A stretch of 62,270 nucleotides of DNA, counting the filler. It is 10 parts of 10 records of this genome, joined end to end, with 100 filler letters (N's around TTAATTAATTAA, not from the genome) between each part and the next. Parts side by side here need not be neighbours in the genome. Positions count along the whole stretch, not along the records: positions 42,457 to 48,520 come from SRR7504441_14755; 9 more parts are not named here. One strand, 5' to 3'. The position numbers and the translations under genes are program-made. The notes beneath the pieces were generated by a model that was not told the DNA's origin, did no database searches, and saw nothing but the letters and a program-made list of their open reading frames with translations. Each line of letters starts with the position of its first letter. Positions within the stretch are counted from its first letter, which is position 1. Below are positions 6,637-61,973 of the stretch, piece by piece.

Positions 6637-6736
6637 NNNNNNNNNNNNNNNNNNNNNNNNNNNNNNNNNNNNNNNNNNNNTTAATTAATTAANNNNNNNN
6701 NNNNNNNNNNNNNNNNNNNNNNNNNNNNNNNNNNNN
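6637..6736. other. Artificial contig linker (N44-TTAATTAATTAA-N44). Identical linkers at 12178-12277, 16544-16643, 29098-29197, 35582-35681, 42357-42456, 48521-48620, 54916-55015, 59007-59106
   Basis: Identical 100-bp spacer with stops in all six frames. Confidence 0.98.
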
Positions 6737-11989: not shown

Positions 11990-12952
11990 CTGGGACCTTG
12001 TGCGGATGGCACTCGATGGACAATCTCAACGCGAGTCTTGTCATAAAATCTGAGCGAGGACGTTGACGACGTCGACGCTGCGGTGAAGGTGCGGCGGCCT
12101 TGGTGGTCTAGGTGATGTGGGCGAGGCAACTCTATTTAGTGCCGGGGTATTTGGGCACTCGTGCCGGCCGATAGAATNNNNNNNNNNNNNNNNNNNNNNN
12201 NNNNNNNNNNNNNNNNNNNNNTTAATTAATTAANNNNNNNNNNNNNNNNNNNNNNNNNNNNNNNNNNNNNNNNNNNNAGCGGGCTTGTCGGGACTATCTG
12301 AGCGAGGCAGGCGAGACAGGTACGACCAAGCCTATTCAACAAGGCACGCCATCGAGTGTGGATCGAACTAGGGGCAGCCGGGCAGCGCCTGTCGCGCCGG
12401 AGAACGGCACGCCTTTGCCCAGCCAGGGTTTGTGGGATTGGCTACGGAAAGAAAAGAACAAAACCGGCCTGAACTGAGTCATCTGCAGTACTGGATTCCA
12501 AGTCTGATCTAAGCTTGACGGGAGTTGCCGAACGAACTTTAGTTCGAATTCTACATTGCTAATGTCATCACGAGCTCTACACGCGCTCCGCTTTACACAG
12601 TAGTGACAATGTTAATTAAGCTTCAGTTCAATAGCGCTCGGGCTCAATCAGGATACAATCATGATCAGGACTTCATAGTCATTACACTATAGGACTAGCC
12701 ACTTACTTGTCACCAGCTAGATAATCATAATAAAATGACCACGGGTCTGATACGATTTTTGATAAGATTTTAATAACTACTCAGGCAGCTTCATGTTGTA
12801 CGTACATGATTGTGTTTGTAAGTAAGTAAACACGATCGTACGAGTTAGTACGAGTACGGCAGTACATGTACAGTACTGTATCTAATTCTTGAGTTGTTTG
12901 ACCAATCAACCATAACCGTTCACAATCGTTGACTGATTGATCAGTTATCTAA

Positions 12953-16543: not shown

Positions 16544-16799
16544 NNNNNNNNNNNNNNNNNNNNNNNNNNNNNNNNNNNNNNNNNNNNTTAATTAATTAAN
16601 NNNNNNNNNNNNNNNNNNNNNNNNNNNNNNNNNNNNNNNNNNNGGGACAGGGTAGACACAAAGATAATCGGGGGTGGGACGGGGGTTATGTTTCGATGTT
16701 ACCGGGGGTGGGACATTATCTATTTTTATGGAGCACTCGTACGTGTACAAGTCTACGGTACGCAGTAGACTCAACACACAGTCAGCTGCATCATGATCA

Positions 16800-28938: not shown

Positions 28939-29382
28939 GCTGTCCGTGGCGGTGCTGAACGGGTTACGAGGATTGCTGGTCCCCCGAGTTCGTTAACTTT
29001 CCGTTGGCAACGTGGGATCCCCACGTTTTTTTATTGTTTTCTGCGAGTCTGTTTATTCTACTGCGTACGTATTTTGATTGTGTCTTCAGAACTGTGCNNN
29101 NNNNNNNNNNNNNNNNNNNNNNNNNNNNNNNNNNNNNNNNNTTAATTAATTAANNNNNNNNNNNNNNNNNNNNNNNNNNNNNNNNNNNNNNNNNNNNTAA
29201 AGCAATTAACTGCTATCAAGTTTAGTGTCTGTCTGATGAGCTCTGTCGCGCCACACGTGAGACGACGACAACAACAACACCAGCGGTGGCCGGGGTTCGG
29301 TCCGAAGTGCAGCTCGTGGTTCCGGGGCAAGGCGGCGGCGGCGGCGGCGGCGGCGGCAGGTGCACGCGGGGGGCTTGCGGGT

Positions 29383-35466: not shown

Positions 35467-35681
35467 GATTTTAAGCCAGTTTAATGCGTGAATAAAACCC
35501 AGCTATACCAGCCCATTGGATATGATAAACAATGATAAAGCCCTGCCCAAAAACTAGTTCCGCATCAGGGAGCGGGTGTGANNNNNNNNNNNNNNNNNNN
35601 NNNNNNNNNNNNNNNNNNNNNNNNNTTAATTAATTAANNNNNNNNNNNNNNNNNNNNNNNNNNNNNNNNNNNNNNNNNNNN

Positions 35682-42329: not shown

Positions 42330-42456
42330 GTTCAACCTGTGAAAGCCAACCCACGCNNNNNNNNNNNNNNNNNNNNNNNNNNNNNNNNNNNNNNNNNNNN
42401 TTAATTAATTAANNNNNNNNNNNNNNNNNNNNNNNNNNNNNNNNNNNNNNNNNNNN

Positions 42457-45400
42457 CCCCCCCCGGGCCCAGGCCGAGAAGGCCGCGCGGGTGGGTCCGG
42501 CCGTTGGTTTGTCCGTTGACGCCGGAGGGCAGCCGCCGCTGCAGACCATCGGACAATCGTCGCCGCTCAAGCAGAGCCGGGCGCTGCTGGCCGAGAAGAA
42601 GGTAACGGACTGTGCTATAAATAGAATGACAACGGACGGCAGGCGCTGGATATGCAGCTGCGAGAGCGCGAGAGCTCCGACCGAGCGCTGAGCCGGTGAT
42701 TTATGCTGATTTATGATTTCTCACGGGTCGGCCAGCGAGCGCGATCGGCTCCAGAAGTCGTTCAACGAGCTGGAAGAGGTGGCGGTTGGGATTTAACGGC
42801 GTTCCAACGGAAACGGCCAGGTTTGGGCGCCGATCGGAGATTTCAAGTACGCGGCGTGTGAAATCGTCTCGGTTGATCCTCATCAAATCGTGCTCATCCG
42901 GAAGGATACCAAGGCGGCTATTAATAGATGTCCGTTGGGAGTAACGGAATAACGGCAGGAGTGCCTGGAGCGCAGCCTGGATGAGCTGCTGCCGGAGGAT
43001 CCGGGCGCGCGCGAGCCACCTGCAAACCTGGTCGAACTGCACAGGATTCAGGAGACACAGCTGCTCGAGGCCACCCGCTACAAGGCGGCCGTTGGGATAT
43101 ATATATAGCCATATGACCGTTGGGACAGGCCAATCAGAACCAATTCTCCACGCTTTGTGGCCCGAACGCGATCGCTCTCTGCAAAGGAGGTGACAGAGAG
43201 GGCGCCATTATTATAATTATTGTTATGATCACCACCCGCTCTAAATTAACGGAATACGGGCAGGCCCGGGGCTGTTGGACGATACAGACACCCACCCGAG
43301 CCGGCTGGAAGCTTTGCTCGACCTTGTCAGGCAGACCAGACGGCGGGCCGTGACGGACGGCCGGGTAGTAGCATCACGGCAGGAGCGGATTCTAACGGAA
43401 TTTCCAGGTGAGGACGTTCGTTTGTTTGGGGGTCTCGGGCTCTGGGAAGAGCCTGGCGTCGCGGGCGATCACACAGGTGTGCATAGTTGTTTGATTTATT
43501 GATTTATTGATTAATCCGGTGGTCAGGCGATAATCCAGCCCGACCCCGCCACCGGCCACCTTCCCAACGATCGAGTGCTTACTCTGAGCGCCGCCATGAC
43601 CACTGTGCTCGATGCCTTCGGGTGCGATTATGACTGATTTATTGATTATTAATTCATCCGGGCAGCTGCTGTGCAAGCGGGCAGACACGTAACTCTTCAA
43701 GGTTCGGCGCTTTGTATGAGCTACAACTATCCAAGTGCCGCGCGCCCGACCCGGCGTCGCCCCCAGACGAGAAATGGCTGATGGACGGCTCCGAGGTGTG
43801 ACTGATTTTAATTCAATTTCGATTTAATCCGGTGGCAGGTGTCTGGAATCTCTCTAAGCACTTTCGGGCTGGAGACACACACGGTGATTCGAATCAATCC
43901 CCAACCGCTTTTTTAACGGCAACGGCAGGTTGTGGAGCAGCTGCCTGGTCAGAGCAACTTCAACGTCTTTTACCTGCTCTGCCACTCGTGTCAAGAGGAA
44001 GGTGGCCCGATCTGGCTTAATAAGCGAATTAATCCGCCGGCCCAGGCGCCGGGCTAGAAGCTCTAAAGCTCCGAGCTTCGGCCAACTTTAACTTCCTCAA
44101 AAACGCCGCCCCGCCCGGCAAACCGACCGAGGCAGTGTCGCAGTTCATCGCGCTCCAGGCCAGCTGGGTGGTCGGGTGGGATTGAAGGTTGGAGCAGGGA
44201 GCGATGGAGGAGATGCTGTTCGACGTGGTCGAAATCGAGGTCCCAACCGCATTTCCAACGGCTTTTAACGGAATTTCAGGCCGCCTGGTGTGTGCTCGCG
44301 GCCATTCTGCACCTGGGGCAACTCGAGTTCGGTGCGCTGTGCTAAAAATAGCCGGAAATTCCGAACTGAATCCCAACTGACAGTGCTCGGGACCGACGGC
44401 GTGACAGCCCAGCCGATCTCCACTGTCAAGACAGGTGCTTCTGTGCTATAAATAGCCGGATTCTAACTGCATCCAACGGACAGTGGCCATGCTGCTGAAG
44501 ATTGACGCGGTCAAGGCCCACACCGAGCTGTGCTCGCTCGGAGACAAGTGGGACAAGGTATCCCAACGGCTTTTAACGGCATTTACAACGGCATTCAGGT
44601 GATGGGTGCCCGGTACGCGCGTCCGGAGCTGGCGGCGTGCGCCAGCCGCGACGCGCTGTGCCGCATTCTGTACCAGCGGCTGTTCAACTTCATCGTGCAG
44701 CGAGTGAACGACACGCTGTGCGCCGAGCAATCGGACGGTTTTCTAACGGCATTTAACGACATCTAACGGCATTCAGGTATCCTGGCGGTGCTGGATCCTC
44801 CGGGCGGGCTGGCCCAGAGCGGAGCGGGTGGGCTCGGGTCGATGCAGGTGGTTTATTTATAGATTTAATTCTAATTGAATCTGTGCAGCTGCTGCTGAGG
44901 AACTTCTCACACGAGCGAATGCAGCAGCACTTTTGTCAGCAGGCAACCGACACTTAACTGCATTTTAACGGCATTGCTAAGCAGTGTAAGGTGTAGTTTG
45001 CCGCCATTGCTGAATCCCCAACCGCCTTGATTAACTGCTTTCGGTTGCAGATGTTCGTGCTACAGAAGAATCGGATGAAGGAAGAGGGCATCGTCTCCCT
45101 CAACGATCTCGAGTTCCCAGACAACGACCAGGCGGCTCGATCTAAAAATAGAACAATCTCAACGGTTTCCGTTGCCAGGTGCTCGAACTGCTCGAGAGAA
45201 GGAGCAGCGGAATGCTCGGGATAATCGAAGAGGTCGAGGGCCTTCCGCAGGTGCAACAATCTATAAATAACCCAGTCCCAACGGACTTTTGTGCAGTCGC
45301 GGCCAGAGGCGCTGTTCCAGAAGCTTCAATCTCTGTTCACAGGGCACCCGAACTTTGTGTCCAGCCAGCCGGAGCGTGGCACTCGGCTGTGCACGGTCGA

Positions 45401-48400
45401 ACATTCGTTCGGCGCTTGCACGTACAGCGTCAGCTCATTCCTGGACATTGAAGGCGACGACTCGTTCACTCCGGCACTCAAGCTGTTAGAGGGCACCCAG
45501 TCGGAGCTGCTGAATTCGCTATTTCCGGCGCTGGTGCAGTTGTAGTGTTAACACTGGCTGATTAATCCCAACCGCAGACTCTCGGGGACGATTCGTATGG
45601 GCTGGCAAGCTCCATCTCCAAAGCCAGTTATCTCAAGTCACAGCTCGCTTCGGTCAAGCAGCTGGTCGGGTGACTGTTAAGCGCACCTGCCCGATTAGGA
45701 AACAGCTGTTAACTAACTGCTCTTAACACAGGCCTTCGCTCAGCATCTTTGTGCACTGCCTCGCTACAACTGCCGACGGCGAAGGCCCCCGCCAGCCAGA
45801 AGCGCGATATCCTTTCGACCCGGTGAGTGCAGCGCCGGCTAGTTGTGGCTGAGCATGGCGCAGGCGCACGTGCAACAGCAGCTGCGGCATGGGGCGGTGC
45901 TGGCTTCGCTCCAGTGGCAGCGGTTTGGTTATCCGATCTCGATGCCGGTCGACGACTTCTGGGATCGGTAAATACCAATAATAATAATAATTGCTAGTAA
46001 TAATAAGAACATAAGCAATGCCTGTAAGCCTATACATAGCATAGCATAGCTCTCTCCAGGATCTGGTACGGACACTGAACTCAAAACGTCTGTTGTGTAC
46101 AGTTACTACCATCTAGGCAACATGCGCCCGCTGTCTGAGACCCACCCTCTACCCAACGGGAGCAAGAAAGAAGCCGTTGCTGTCATCCTGGGCAAATGCC
46201 CCTTCGACCAGCACCACTGGAGGATCGGCACCCACTCTGTCTTCCTTAGACCGAAACCTCTCCATGTTCTGGAGGAGCTTCGGAAGGTTAACAACAGTTA
46301 GTGTCACACTAATCCCCAACCGCAGGCCATCGAGTGGAGCGCCGCCTCCTGCATCGCCGCCCGGATCAAGAAGCAGCGCATGTGACTGTCACAGCTTAAC
46401 ACTGTTTAATCAATCCCAACCGACAGGTACCGGTTCTTCCACGCGCGCAAGCAGGCTTTGCGGATGCTCCAGGTTTCCGTTAAAAGCCGTTAGAAAGCCG
46501 GCGAGCTGTGTGGCAGCCGTTTGTGCGGGGGGTGCTCACCAGGCAGCTGTACCAACGGGCGCTCGAAGGCGCATTTATGACTTTCTCCGACCGAGAATCG
46601 TCCAGTAACTGCTCGTACAGTTGTATAGTAGTGTACAGTGTATGGTGTAAGCACTTGGGTGGCACTAGGAGCCCTAGCCCTAGCCCTGGGCCTCTAGCAA
46701 GCGAGGCTGGTGCAGCATACAACCACGCAAAGCGGCTGGAGTCCGACAACGAGGCTCGTGAGCTGGCGGCGATGGCAGCTGAGGAGGAGCAATCCAAGGC
46801 ACCCGGGCGGTGCTATTGTTAGATCAGCCCGGGGTGCAGGTGGCCTGGGTGAAGATCGAAGCCGCGGAGTTACAGGAAGCGGCAAATATCGTGGCAATGT
46901 ACGATGCCAAGGTATTAATCCTCGCTAATAATAATAATAATACTCGTGGTGATTGTGCGGCGGTGTGTGACGTGGGTGGTGCAGGTGGAAGGTGAGGCGC
47001 TCAACGCTGTCTGGCGGCTGGAGCGGCTCACTGATGACATGGACGAGAACTCGCGCTGCTACTTCACGGTATGATAAACAGCTATAGCTAGTACGGGGGC
47101 TGAGTGCGGCTCAGGACCCTGCAGTGGAGCCGATGACAGTAGCGCCAGGATGCGAAGTGTACGGCCCTGCTGACCATACACACCAGCATCCGTGACAAAC
47201 ACCAAACCGATAGTCAACTGACACGGCCGCAGATACTCAGATTTCCACGAGATTGCAGCGCTGGCTGTGGACGCTGTGCGGTCGATTACAACTGACGTGA
47301 CCGAACGGGTGATCACGAGGGCGGAGGCGGAGCTCGAAAGGTTAACAGCGCATTCCCGATTAGGAAGGTGACGCGTGTTAACTCAGGACGCACCGGGAGG
47401 AGAACACGGCTGCGGCGACCATCCAGCACATGGAGAATGAGGACAAGTACATCAAGGCGGTCGAGGCGGCGCTCGCGGCCCGTGTGGTGTTAACGCCACC
47501 TTCCCGATTGGGCGTGATCGGTTAACAGGTGCTCACGCCCGGCCAAGAGCTTAACATGATGATTCAAGCCGAGTACGGGATGCGATTCAGGCAGCCTCCT
47601 GTGCTATTTATAGACAGTTCCAACGGCATTTGCAGGCAGCTGATCGAGGGCAACCGGAAGGCGATGGAGGAGATGGAGAAGCTCCGGCCTCCGGCGGTAT
47701 GTTAACACGTGTTCCCGATTAGGAAGGTAACACTGACGCAGGACGAGATCGCGTTCGAGCCGGATGCCGTTGACGGGCACAAGACGGTTAGGTTGAATGG
47801 TTATAACGGACTGAGTAGCTGCAGGCGGGCGGAGACTTGTTTGAAATGCTCAAGAAGGAGTGCGACAAGGCGATCGACATGGTATGTTAACAGCCGCTTC
47901 CTAATTAGGAAGGTAACACCGGCCGGCAGGTGGCTAGTGAGGCCGAGATCCACAAGAATCAGGAGATCAACCAAGCATCCAAAGAGCTCGGGCAGCGGCA
48001 GGTGTTAAGAGCACCTTCCTAATCCGGAAGTGGTGTTAAGCTATGTCACGGCAGAGCGGGCTGATTGTGGACGAGATTGTGGACGCGATTGTCCAACTGG
48101 CCGAGCAGCAGGTGTTAAGAGCACCTTCCTAATTAGGAAGCTGACACTTAACAGGGCGAATATAACAAAATGGTCAAGAAATCCATCGAAATCAAAGAAC
48201 GTCGAAAGCGCGAGATCGACACCCTCAAAACAGCCCAGACGCTCCAGATGCAGGTGTTAACAGCGCTTGCCTAATCAGGAAGGTAACCCGTTAACACAGG
48301 AGGAGATGGTCCAGCAAGACAAAGACCGGGCCCAGCGGCGCGCCGACCGTCGCGCTCGGCAGGTAGTGTCGCCAGCCCTGAGCTGTGTGGTGGCTGAGCG

Positions 48401-48520
48401 GAGCACAGGAGGCTGAGGCAGCCAAGGCGGCCAAGAAGGCGGCCGACAAGGAGGCAGCTCGGGCGGCCAAGGCTGCCGCGGATGCCGAGGAGGAGGAGGA
48501 AGTGAAGGTGTCGGTTGGGG
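42457..48520 (+). CDS. Divergent myosin (SH3-like N-terminus, motor domain, IQ motifs, helical tail), both ends truncated, ~45 introns
   Basis: Manual splicing gives one open frame with GVSGSGKS (P-loop), LDAFG...NSSRFG (switch I), SNFNVFYLL, LAAILHLG, RDALCRILYQRLF, NFSHERMQQHF, FGYP, IGTHSVFLR, LQPFVRGVLTR (IQ). Confidence 0.88.
42602..42642 (+). repeat. Motif intron, family B/C (TGTGCTATAAATAG + AACGG)
   Basis: 41-nt GT-AG intron restoring frame; shares core with 44332-44383, 44435-44483, 45132-45178, 45251-45296, 47591-47635. Confidence 0.65.
43477..43838 (+). repeat. Three adjacent family D introns (TGATTT...TAATCC/CATCC-GG): 43477-43526, 43622-43665, 43796-43838; also 42696-42735
   Basis: Shared TGATTT(A/T) repeats and ATCCGG(TGG)..CAG 3' ends. 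Confidence 0.65.
44240..44776 (+). repeat. Family C introns built of tandem YAACGGCWTT units: 44240-44279, 44558-44598, 44738-44776
   Basis: e.g. GTATCCCAACGGCTTTTAACGGCATTTACAACGGCATTCAG; a reverse-complement copy lies in intron 46473-46516. Confidence 0.7.
44332..44483 (+). repeat. Two highly similar adjacent family B introns (44332-44383, 44435-44483)
   Basis: Both read GTGC..CTGTGCTAWAAATAGCCGGA..TTC..AACTG.ATCC.AAC.GACAG. Confidence 0.75.
45670..45731 (+). mobile_element. Introner-like family A intron (GTTAA...CCCGATTAGGAA...TTAAC.CAG)
   Basis: 62-nt intron sharing core and ends with the 47341-48299 cluster. Mobility is inferred. Confidence 0.5.
47341..48299 (+). mobile_element. Cluster of seven introner-like family A introns: 47341-47386, 47487-47528, 47697-47741, 47882-47929, 48002-48054, 48112-48154, 48254-48299
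   Basis: Consensus GT(A/G)(T)GTTAA(C/G)-N6-8-TTCCYRATTAGGAAG-N-(GT)TAAC-CAG; quasi-palindromic. 48002 and 48112 share their first 22 nt exactly. Confidence 0.6.
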
Positions 48521-48620
48521 NNNNNNNNNNNNNNNNNNNNNNNNNNNNNNNNNNNNNNNNNNNNTTAATTAATTAANNNNNNNNNNNNNNNNNNNNNNNN
48601 NNNNNNNNNNNNNNNNNNNN

Positions 48621-54763: not shown

Positions 54764-55343
54764 CTAGCATATGCGCAGCACTGGCAAGCCACTCACGTTA
54801 ACCCCCCTGGGCTCCCGGACTCCTATGCAATAATAACTGCTTTTAACTAGTATCAAGCCCTAGGCATTACATGATTGTACGCCTGATGTGTAGTGGGTAG
54901 TGCCCACACCCTCCTNNNNNNNNNNNNNNNNNNNNNNNNNNNNNNNNNNNNNNNNNNNNTTAATTAATTAANNNNNNNNNNNNNNNNNNNNNNNNNNNNN
55001 NNNNNNNNNNNNNNNGCCAAGGCCCATGCAACGGAACTTCTCCTCACAAGTATTATAATTGATACGTATTGCTGTACAATAAAAGATTGGAATTGATTCG
55101 AATGCCGGGAGTATACTCCGGGCGCCGGCCTGATCCGATCCGTGTGGACTTATTCATTATTGAAGTACGTGTCATTTTATTCGCACGCTTCATACTCATA
55201 ATCACAACACCATCGTCGGGATGTAATAATCATACCGTACGTTCTTGTACTATACCTGCACATCAGATCACGTACGTGATGTGCAGTGTAACGATCCATG
55301 CCCGCGAGCATCCAACCTAGCCATAACCGACCAGCAATAGTCC

Positions 55344-57406: not shown

Positions 57407-58797
57407 ATGCGGCTGTGGCTAGCCGGACTGGCCCTGACAGGACTGGCCCTGGCCGGGCTCCCGCGCCTCGAGTGCCCCGCCGGGTGCCGGGAGATCTTCA
57501 CGATCGGTGACTTGCACGCCGACGCCCAATGCGCCCGCCGATGGCTGGAGCGCACCGGGCTGGTCCACCTAGATCCGTTATCAGGCGAGCCGACCTGGAC
57601 CGGCGGGAACAGTAGCGGGATCGTGCTGATGGGCGACTATATTGACAAGGGCTTGGCCGGCCGGTCAGTCCTCGAGCTGATCAGAGGGGTCCACCGGGCG
57701 GCCCCGCCGGGGAGCGTGCTGCCTCTGCTGGGCAAGTGAGCGCCCGGGGCCGGCAGCGGGTGAGCCTGGGGCAGCCACGACTTCTACACCCTGCTGGACA
57801 CGTACCTGAAGCCGGGGACTGACCGCCCGATGGGGGTGGAAGTCTCCGAATATTTGCATGCGTTCACCCAGCCGCTCGAGATGTTGAATTGGGCCACAAA
57901 TCAGACCGAGCAGGACCTGCGCGAGGTGATCCCGGCGGTGTACCGGGCGTTGGAGTGGGCGTACGATCGAGGGGCCGAGCGGTCTTTGACTATGTCTCGA
58001 GGGCCACGCAGCCTGCTGGCTGTGGCGCCCGAATTTGCTGCGAACCAGTCGCTGCGGCGGCTTGTGGGTGAGCGCCTGGCGAGCTTGCGGGGCGAGATGG
58101 GCGCGGCGCTGGAGCGGTCTGGGCTGGGCGGCTGGCTCCGGGGGCTGCCGGTGCTGGCGCTGGCGGGAGACGCGCTGGTGGTTCACGGAGGTGATTGCCT
58201 TATTAGGAAAGATGTTAAGCTATGCCATTGCCTTATTCGGACGGGGCAGGGCTGCCGCCCGGCGAGCTGGCCGGCGAGCCGTTAGAGGAGACGTTGCAGC
58301 GGCGGAGCAATAGCGGGCTGTGGGCCGGCTGGGCCGAGGGCGCTGTCGAACCTCTTAGCCTAGGAGGATTCCGGGAGCTGGCTGGGGATGCCGCAGGGCT
58401 TGTCCCGAAGCTGGTGACGCACCGGGGCTATTTTGGGCCGGGCGGGTGCGCCCAAGTGAACCGTGTCGTCGAGAGGCTTGCCGGTGTAGGCGTGAGGCGA
58501 GTGGTCGTCGGCCACACTCCCACTGATACAGACACAGTGCAGCTCCGTTGCGGAGGTCGGCTCGTGGCAACCGACGCGGCGCTTAGCCGTTACTTTAGGG
58601 CGCACGGTAACCGTTACTGCCATCCGGATCGGAAGCCAACAGGGTGGTTCCGAGGGCTTTTGAGCCGGCGACGAGCCTGCGAGCAGAGGGTTAGCCCAGA
58701 GTGCGGAGGCCAGATCGCGAGGATGCACCGGGCGGGCGAGGACGGGCCGTGGACGGTAGAGCGGCTGGAGCTAGAGCGTGGGTCTGACGAGGTTTGA
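57407..58797 (+). CDS. Secreted calcineurin-like metallophosphoesterase (Shewanella-like phosphatase type); introns 57736-57774, 58191-58249
   Basis: GDLHAD, MGDYIDKG, LGNHD (spliced), VHGG, VVGHTP. Confidence 0.82.
58191..58249 (+). mobile_element. Family A-related intron in another contig
   Basis: TTGCCTTATTAGGAAA core plus TGTTAAGCTATG shared with myosin intron 48002-48054. Confidence 0.5.
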
Positions 58798-59399
58798 TAC
58801 AAGGAGCCCTACTGATACAAGGCTACTGTAGTGTAAGCTTAGTTGTTTATGGGTTTATTGAATAGTTAGTCAGTACTACTGACATTGTTTCATTGTGCAT
58901 GTTGGGGTCATAACCTGTCGATCAGCCTGGCCCGCACCACTTCCCCGTCGCTCAGCCACTTTTGCTGCCAGCTCAGCACCTGCCCCCCCCCCCCCCCCCC
59001 CCCCCCNNNNNNNNNNNNNNNNNNNNNNNNNNNNNNNNNNNNNNNNNNNNTTAATTAATTAANNNNNNNNNNNNNNNNNNNNNNNNNNNNNNNNNNNNNN
59101 NNNNNNCGGAGGTCGGCGAGTAAGCGGGAATGACGCCGAGTTCTGATGCGCTCCTATGGCGGTTAGTAGGCGGTCAGAGGTCAGATGAAGAGGCTTAGTG
59201 ATCGGATAGTGATCGGATTGATAGTTATGTTGATTTCAACTAAACTTCGACCTCGATAATCTATGACAATTTCTACTCAAGAGAAGCTGGCAACCAGCAA
59301 CTACCAAAATCACACCAGCCGCATCGACCAAAGCTCGCGATCAGAACTCGAGATCGTTCGGATCAAGCCCACTGGCAGTCAGCCCACTGGCAGCTAGCT

Positions 59400-60746: not shown

Positions 60747-61973
60747 ATGGACAGCGAGGGGTCTGGTGGTGGGAAGAGGGACGCTGAGGCGGCGGGGCTG
60801 CTGGCCCGGGCCGAGGCGACGGCAGCGGGGCGGGCTGGGGCTGAGGGTGGGGGGCAGGTGGACCCGGCCAAGTGGGGCGCCATGTCCCAGAACGCCAAGA
60901 AGCGGCTGATCTCAAAGCTGCGCCGGGTGGCCTCCTGGTGCACCCAGGGCTGAGCTGGGCTGCAGATGGAGGAGCGGGCGGCCCCGCCCCCGGCCCCACC
61001 GAGCTGCGCCTGGCGGCTGGTGCGGCTGCTGGTCGAGTACGATGGGGGCGGGTTCAAGGGGTCCCAGCTGCAGGCCGGGGAGGTCCGTACCATACAGGGC
61101 GCCATCGAGCAGGCGGCCGGCCTAGGGTGCTGGGGCGTGAGCTGGGGGCAGGCGGTGTGCCACCTGACCCACCACCCGGACCCGCGAGAGCTCAACTACC
61201 AGGTATTCAGGCAGCCCTGTGTGGCAGCGCGGCTCACTGTGGCTGCAGGCGGCCTCACGGACCGACGCGGGGGTGCACGCGCTGGGCCAGGCGGGCGGTG
61301 GGCTGCTCCGGGCGGAGCGGGCGCAGGTGGCGGTGCTCAGGGTCCGGTGCGAGCAGTCAGCCGGCCAGCTGCAGCACCAGCTCAACTCAAGACTCCCCGA
61401 AGACCTGGTTATTTATAGCAATTGCACTGTGACCGAAGCCTAATGCTGGGCTGCAGGTGGTAAGAAAGGTAGATTTCCCGGAGGCCGAGTTCAACCCGCG
61501 CAAGGCCAAGCGCAAGTGGTGTGTGAGCTGCTTTCTGGCCCGCTGCAGCGCGGGGTAGGTATCAGTATCAGCTGCACAGAGGCGACACTCGAAGCGCCGT
61601 GCACCGGGGATACTGCTGGAGCGTCGGCAAGCCGTTGGATTTGGAGGCGCTTAAGGCGGCGGCTAGTCACATGGTGGGCCGTCACGATTTTACTTCGTTC
61701 TGTGACCCGAAGGCTGAGGGCGACAGTGGGAGTGAGTGTGACTTGGAGAGCATAGAGGTGCAAGAGCGAGGCGAGATGGTGTTGCTCGATTTCAGAGGGA
61801 ACCGGTTCTTGTATAAGATGATTCGTATCATCGTGGGGACGCTCGTAGAGGTGGCGAGGGGCAAGGTGCAGCCCGAGCAGATTAATAGTATCTTAGAAGC
61901 TAAGGACCGCCAGGGAGCAGGTCCAGCGGCGCCAGGACGAGGCCTCACGCTAATGGAAGTGTCGTACCAATAA
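60747..61973 (+). CDS. truA: tRNA pseudouridine synthase, TruA family (several introns)
   Basis: VEYDGGGFKGSQLQ, ASRTDAGVHALGQ, LNSRLPEDL, GRHDFTSF, GNRFLYKMIRIIVGTL, APGRGLTL. Confidence 0.9.

Follow-up and report, generated by a model that had tools for sequence, protein, structure and literature searches.

The window, a stretch of 62,270 bases assembled from ten contigs, contains a divergent myosin gene that is densely interrupted by very short introns, eight of which form a sequence family that we call family A. The gene occupies one whole contig. In the span 47341-48299 it has nine consecutive introns, seven of which belong to family A; these are 42-53 nucleotides (nt) long and share GTGTTAAS, a centre of the TTCC-TAATTA-GGAA type, GGTRAC and often a second STTAAC. 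The features of the locus, with positions counted along the window, are as follows.

42457-48520, + strand: divergent myosin gene, occupying the whole 6,064-nt contig and truncated at both ends
45670-45731, + strand: family A copy 8, 62 nt; lies apart from the cluster, 1.6 kb upstream, with GTTAAG and CTTAAC arms that pair
47341-47386, + strand: family A copy, 46 nt; full hairpin, -15.5 kcal/mol
47487-47528, + strand: family A copy, 42 nt; centre degraded (5 differences), outer GTTAAC/GTTAAC stem retained
47591-47635, + strand: non-family intron (CTATTTATAG family), 45 nt, GC-AG, in frame, without a stop codon
47697-47741, + strand: family A copy, 45 nt; second GTTAAC arm missing, no end-to-end hairpin
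47787-47824, + strand: non-family intron, 38 nt, from the gene model
47882-47929, + strand: family A copy, 48 nt; exact centre palindrome, lacks the second arm
48002-48054, + strand: family A copy, 53 nt; second GTGTTAAG in direct, not inverted, orientation
48112-48154, + strand: family A copy, 43 nt; exact centre, near-perfect palindrome (z score -4.2)
48254-48299, + strand: family A copy, 46 nt; arms of 8 nt, GTGTTAAC/GTTAACAC, in a full hairpin
58191-58249, + strand: probable intron and partial family-A relative on another contig, 59 nt; shares modules with the copy at 48002

A preliminary description of this DNA had assigned a shared layout and a length of 42-53 nt to seven introns in the run of nine at 47341-48299, and the gene model agrees with that reading of the sequence. 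Introns 48002 and 48112 have GTGTTAAGAGCACCTTCCTAAT in common exactly, as it had stated. The layout is confirmed. At the centre, exact TTCCTAATTAGGAA occurs in two copies and four more in the span differ from it at 2 positions, while the copy at 47487 is degraded. With up to 3 mismatches allowed, the centre was matched 8 times in the window against 0.70 expected, a count reached in none of 100 shuffles, and the combined pattern GTTAA-N6-7-centre gave 7 matches against 0 expected. GTTAAC alone was found 15 times against 4.7 expected, with 11 of the 15 on the family-A contig. The copy at 48002-48054 also has the module GTTAAGCTATGTCA, which is present in intron 58191-58249 as well; these two introns share the centre-like TGCCTTATTAGGAA, match at 14 of 15 positions over TGTTAAGCTATGCCA / TGTTAAGCTATGYCA, and reach a pair score of 25 where the null maximum is 21. 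The 59-nt length of 58191-58249 is consistent with the frame shift between its two flanking open reading frames (ORFs). Family A is represented in the 62 kb by 8 copies, all in the myosin gene, and by 1 partial relative in another gene; no copies outside genes were found in the window.

The myosin gene was modelled by dynamic programming, with one in-frame GC-AG intron added by hand, to give 45 introns; orthologue alignment exposed about five spurious mini-exons, and the count of ~45 is therefore approximate. Removal of the introns leaves a stop-free product of 1303 amino acids (aa) laid out as an N-terminal coiled coil, an SH3-like domain, a motor, IQ, and a coiled-coil tail. Two exons matched Pfam Myosin_head at collinear profile positions, with scores below the gathering score. 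The product aligned end to end with the orthologue P0163 (1400 aa, on a 4.4-kb contig) at 35% identity, and showed 58% identity to a second orthologue, P0159. Intron length in the gene has a median of 44.5 nt, and intron G+C content (GC) is 0.48, against an exon GC of 0.61 (0.77 at third codon positions, GC3); the density is ~11.5 introns per kb of coding sequence. Donors are GT in 37 and GC in 8 (18%) of the 45 modelled introns, acceptors are CAG in 42, and 30 lie in codon phase 0; the flanking exon base is G at -1 in 38/45 and at +1 in 31/45. The GC donors near 42914, 43088 and 45132 are backed by alignment to P0159. Retention of the in-frame intron 47591-47635 would add 15 residues for which P0163 has no counterpart. 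The protein itself looks catalytically unusual, with a P-loop of G(V/L)SGSGKS and a switch-II region that reads LDPPGG in place of the usual DIxGFE (window 43411-43470 and 44777-44850 cover P-loop/switch-II). P0159 and P0163 show the same features, and the three may represent a conserved divergent myosin class.

Several lines of evidence from the coding frame bear on whether the family-A copies are introns. Retention of any of the 8 copies would introduce an in-frame stop, and 5/8 have a length not divisible by 3. Cutting the copies out from GT to AG restored the frame in all 8. The spliced tail was collinear with the P0163 tail over all seven junctions, with an alignment score of 138; 300 composition-preserving shuffles averaged 74 and did not exceed 117 (z = 6). 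The copies thereby look like genuine, very short spliceosomal introns.

Introns and their exon flanks were scored pairwise. Family-A introns averaged 27 against each other, whereas the scores of their 30-nt flanks, 11 and 10.4, were close to the null (10.5); the likeness reaches the exon borders and does not extend into the exons. All 8 copies group as one cluster, with exon flanks no more alike than the null. This dissimilarity of the flanks rules out duplication of exon-plus-intron units, and tandem duplication of such units was excluded as the origin of the family on the same ground. Across all 1035 intron pairs of the gene, 70 forward and 43 reverse pairs reached the 99.9th percentile of the shuffled null. 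At least four intron families were distinguished: family A (8 copies), a TCCCAACGG/TTTAACGG tandem-unit family B (6), a CTATAAATAG family (4), and a GATTTATTGATT...AATCCGG family (4 copies). Similar introns also lie nearer each other in the gene, at a mean rank distance of 9.3 against 15.3, a value as low as which was obtained in 0/5000 permutations.

The smaller families have features of their own. The tandem-unit family (introns 43365, 43884, 44240, 44558, 44738 and 44943; window 43365-44996) is built of ~12-nt units of the form (T/C)(T/C)AACGGCWTTT. One of its modules is found reversed, directly at the donor site, in intron 46473-46516 (score 39 against a null maximum of 21), which suggests that copying at the DNA level has happened at least once in the gene. 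The third family (42602-42642, 44332-44383, 44435-44483 and 47591-47635) has CTATAAATAG or CTATTTATAG at its centre; 61408-61456, a probable intron located on a different contig, begins with GTTATTTATAG. Members of the fourth (42696-42735, 43486-43526, 43622-43701 and 43796-43838) carry GATTTATTGATT repeats and end in AATCCGG(T)GGCAG, and 3/4 of these copies are consecutive introns. Two longer introns, 45968-46028 and 46912-46984, have an (AAT)n microsatellite in common (pair score 30).

The dyad of family A is real yet uneven across the copies. A profile built from the + strand copies matched the - strand of 7/8 copies at E<1e-3. Complementary arms of 6-8 nt are present in 5/8, and 3/8 have no pairing arm. 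The arms read GTTAAC/GTTAAC in 47341, 47487 and 48254, and GTTAAG/CTTAAC in 48112 and 45670, which amounts to a compensatory swap. End-to-end folding was predicted for four copies (47341, 47487, 48112 and 48254), at -12 to -16 kcal/mol and z scores of -1.2 to -4.2; the mean fold z score is -1.56 for family A against -0.28 for the other introns of the gene. Since a stable stem would hide the 5' splice site, we read the palindrome as a mark of copying, of the kind left by DNA-level inverted repeats; it would be a trace of how the element is copied and not a help to splicing. The strongest hairpin in the gene belongs to a different intron, the GC-AG intron 46799-46839, whose ends GCACCCGGGC and GCCCGGGGTGC pair at -24 kcal/mol (z score -4.2).

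The acceptor-side TTAAC had been put forward as a possible branch point. It seems less suited to that role, as its distance from the 3' splice site is a mere 3-5 nt, shorter than for the branch-like motifs elsewhere in the gene, where the last xxAAC or CTGAC of the other introns lies 6-16 nt from the 3' end. Family A has GGTRAC/CTGAC at 10-15 nt from the intron 3' end in 5/8 copies, and this internal motif would be a likelier branch site than the terminal TTAAC.

Comparison with related proteins indicated that intron positions in the myosin gene vary. P0154 and P0158 correspond to ORFs of 371 and 364 aa on 4-kb contigs, the former with 68% identity over a matched 69-residue stretch of the query exon. 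Both run uninterrupted over 12 other intron positions of the gene; they start at the exact position of intron 43796-43838 and end where P0159 and a further relative, P0001, meet non-homologous sequence. P0001 lacks intron 45534-45577 and carries a 22-aa in-frame insert that is absent from this gene. From these differences we conclude that intron positions of the myosin gene differ between relatives; such presence and absence was observed for other introns of the gene, and at the protein level only. For the neck/tail ORF 46484-46819 no relatives were found, and no close orthologue was found for the family-A positions.

The ten contigs are joined by nine identical 100-base linkers (N44, TTAATTAATTAA, N44), placed as follows.

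6637-6736, 12178-12277, 16544-16643, 29098-29197, 35582-35681, 42357-42456, 48521-48620, 54916-55015 and 59007-59106: linkers, all identical

The linkers identify the window as a concatenated bin, that is, a metagenome-assembled genome (MAG), and not a single molecule. Its genes are cellular and eukaryotic, and encode a ZIP transporter, a diacylglycerol (DAG) kinase, CIA30, a USP/ubiquitin hydrolase, a GNAT/methyltransferase, a fumarate-reductase-like flavoprotein and a GH28 enzyme. A viral origin, considered in view of the intron-rich mirusvirus (PMC12768974), was rejected on the grounds that the contigs bear cellular genes. The family-A contig has a GC of 0.566 against 0.59-0.66 in the other contigs. 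Per kb, low-GC islands are about one-quarter to one-third as numerous on those other nine contigs (56 kb), and only two credible short-intron candidates were found on them. No Rfam family matched in the window. The host is an uncultured marine-type eukaryote; a pelagophyte-like or Mamiellales-like affinity is our guess, prompted by the GC content, the intron poverty and the 18% of GC-AG donors (compared with bioRxiv 10.1101/2024.10.30.620910).

Taken together, the best explanation is that family A comprises introner-like, genuine short introns copied from one ancestral palindromic element of ~45 nt, a reading to which we assign a probability of about 0.55. It builds on an established repeat family, with established statistics, palindromy, frame restoration, orthologue collinearity and positional clustering. 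The preliminary description had likened the introns to a minimal miniature inverted-repeat transposable element (MITE) whose inverted repeat supplies a splice signal. Related short introns are present, and 5/8 have inverted-repeat arms, including 2 with the compensatory swap; a target-site duplication and a splice-supplying repeat were not seen. The MITE reading is only partly supported.

In the proposed mechanism, each copy would bring its own splice signals, namely a donor GT inside GT(AT)GTTAAS, a branch-like GGTRAC/CTGAC 10-15 nt from the end, and an acceptor CAG. The two halves of a copy appear to be mutual inverted repeats, so that it would consist of little beyond a pair of terminal repeats joined back to back. 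New copies would appear near old ones within the gene, at G|G sites and for the most part in phase 0. Three observations, namely the build from inverted repeats, the compensatory change in the arms and the family-B module found in reverse, lead us to favour copying at the DNA level; the agent could be an element of the foldback or MITE-like type, or templated repair in which a neighbouring intron serves as filler. Both this route and a recent gain of family A are inferred.

A number of observations weigh against this reading. Splicing itself is deduced from the genomic letters. The sequences of P0154 and P0001 are taken to be genomic DNA from the ends of their ORFs, but may instead come from partly spliced transcripts; mis-binning of MAG contigs could also have occurred. 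End-to-end folding is absent in four of the eight copies, a perfect palindrome occurs at the centre of just 2/8, and T-to-G changes in the centre stem are without compensation. All 8 copies recovered by the family-A profile search have the same orientation. Target-site duplication was not detected: the mean boundary repeat was 2.71 nt against 2.67 nt at mismatched junctions, with 1809/5000 permutations as high, and 3.5 nt for family A (n=8), in a test that is blind to a duplication identical with the splice consensus G|G. The further copies for which a profile scan had been proposed did not appear, none being found in the other 56 kb (the best other match, E=0.09, was not a member). A pattern scan of metagenome contigs from the Joint Genome Institute (JGI) gave 11 matches, all unrelated, situated in DNA of 34-50% GC without a second arm or intron context; stricter patterns gave 0 matches in IMG/VR and 0 in GTDB genomes. 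Of the other searches, a first degenerate pattern proved too permissive, with at least 120 single chance-level matches in IMG/VR, and a protein-guided locus search with the 82-aa motor exon returned nothing from IMG/VR or GTDB.

Copying at the RNA level is the alternative that survives best, though we consider it unlikely. An excised family-A intron would reverse-splice into its own or a neighbouring transcript, at a place similar to an exon-exon junction, and the product would be reverse transcribed and recombined into the gene. Such a route accords with the missing target-site duplication, with the clustering of the copies inside a single transcript, and with protosplice-like flanks (G at -1 in 38/45, G at +1 in 31/45, phase 0 in 30/45), and the sense orientation of all 8 copies suits it as well as it does DNA-level copying. 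Indeed, reverse splicing and DNA-level copying fit several features equally well. The inverted family-B copy in the same gene, however, is beyond the reach of RNA-level copying, and recombination with complementary DNA would also remove neighbouring introns, yet the gene is packed with them; this route also leaves the palindrome without a role.

Somewhat less probable again is that the introns are old ones at fixed positions, homogenised by gene conversion or by a shared binding or structural need of very short introns. Their likeness declines with distance, as gene conversion predicts, and branch-like xxAAC motifs recur across many introns of the gene. Against this, the central palindrome is absent from the gene's ~37 other introns, which presumably use the same splicing machinery, relatives lack or shift many introns of the myosin gene, and conversion tracts of ~45 nt that halt exactly at exon borders would be unusual. 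It is highly improbable that the copies are not spliceosomal at all and represent either insertions in a dead gene or DNA segments eliminated at TTAA: both arms contain TTAA in 6/8 copies, but piggyBac-type excision from TTAA to TTAA leaves the frame unrestored in 5 of these 6 and was rejected (the other 2 have one TTAA), whereas GT-to-AG removal restores it in 8/8 with a product collinear with orthologues.

A bolder form of the introner-like reading can be stated, which we hold only tentatively and consider doubtful. Family A would then be a palindromic, self-contained mini-intron, at ~45 nt smaller than any other introner-like unit so far, that buds copies within a few hundred bases and leaves no duplication. 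If this is true, at least three other local families also fill this gene of ~45 introns while the rest of the genome is intron-poor, and intron gain would be a cis-acting, gene-local process rather than one of genome-wide transposition.

The origin of new spliceosomal introns is a long-standing question to which introners are the best-documented answer so far. The locus may show intron gain at its smallest scale, with units of near-minimal length that are palindromic and apparently copied from site to site within a gene. If genome and RNA data agree, it could tell DNA-level from RNA-level copying. If confirmed, it would provide a natural test case for the minimum sequence of a functional intron, and would demonstrate that very short, gene-local families escape standard introner pipelines.

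In Micromonas pusilla, introners reportedly carry a target-site duplication of 3 nt, which provides one of the splice sites, as Huff et al. are said to have described in 2016. Introners are described as intron families derived from non-autonomous transposons, many with inverted repeats and a splice-site-supplying duplication (PMC9860276, PMC12130899, PMC11282704). As in family A, the likeness among introners of Micromonas pusilla, Aureococcus and marine protists extends to the exon borders and not beyond; non-autonomous build, inverted-repeat ends and an occurrence in GC-rich genomes of marine plankton are likewise features in which family A resembles them, and lineage-specific gains would be a further one. 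Published introner examples from TARA MAGs measure 67-109 nt, against 42-53 nt for family A (PMC9860276, PMC12130899). Introner families elsewhere have duplications of 4-8 nt, whereas none is detectable for family A, and introners are scattered over many genes while the 8 family-A copies lie in one. The published introner pipeline calls for BLAST matches at E<1e-5 and for no fewer than 4 host genes that are unrelated (Gozashti 2022, PMC9860276; Gozashti 2025, PMC12130899); within the 62 kb family A does not extend to four unrelated genes, and it would therefore go unreported under the rules as given there.

Hairpin introner elements of Amoebophrya are 120-240 nt long, with inverted repeats that can pair and so bring the exon borders together (PMC7789003). 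They share with family A the inverted-repeat ends and the lack of an internal transposase, and a gene can contain tens of them (PMC12130899), but they have mostly non-canonical borders and direct repeats of 3-5 nt over the junctions, whereas family A is GT-AG and has no such repeats. Nonconventional and intermediate introns of euglenids also have paired ends, for which a MITE-like origin has been proposed (PMC11282704, PMC3935182, PMC4770533); their borders are non-canonical and they are said to be removed as circles by an unknown route, in contrast to the GT/GC-AG borders of family A. The symmetrical sister (stw)introns of the Hypoxylaceae are, like family A, proliferating and nearly symmetrical, with no flanking duplications and seamless insertion (PMC8469720). 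They differ in being fungal and genome-wide, with repeats of 45-55 nt on each side, and in deriving from nested twin introns (PMC8469720). Leaving aside the supplementary tables of introner surveys, including those of TARA MAGs, we found neither intron families that are palindromic and ~45 nt long nor intron families clustered within a gene described in the literature.

The introns of the host gene may also be compared with the BOC1 introns of Mamiellales, which are 40-65 nt long, AT-rich against GC-rich exons, many per gene, and gathered in one region of an intron-poor genome (PMC3491373, PMC3879977). As a class, BOC1 introns are taken to be under 75 nt and to lie in a low-GC part of a single chromosome. 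The likeness is one of length and composition (median 44.5 nt, GC 0.48 against an exon GC of 0.61, contig 0.566 against 0.59-0.66). BOC1 introns are described as singletons with no conserved motifs and no common fold, whereas motifs are present here and the introns form sequence families. Family A itself behaves like an introner; smaller than the cited examples and almost wholly palindromic, it shows no duplication and is so far local to one gene.

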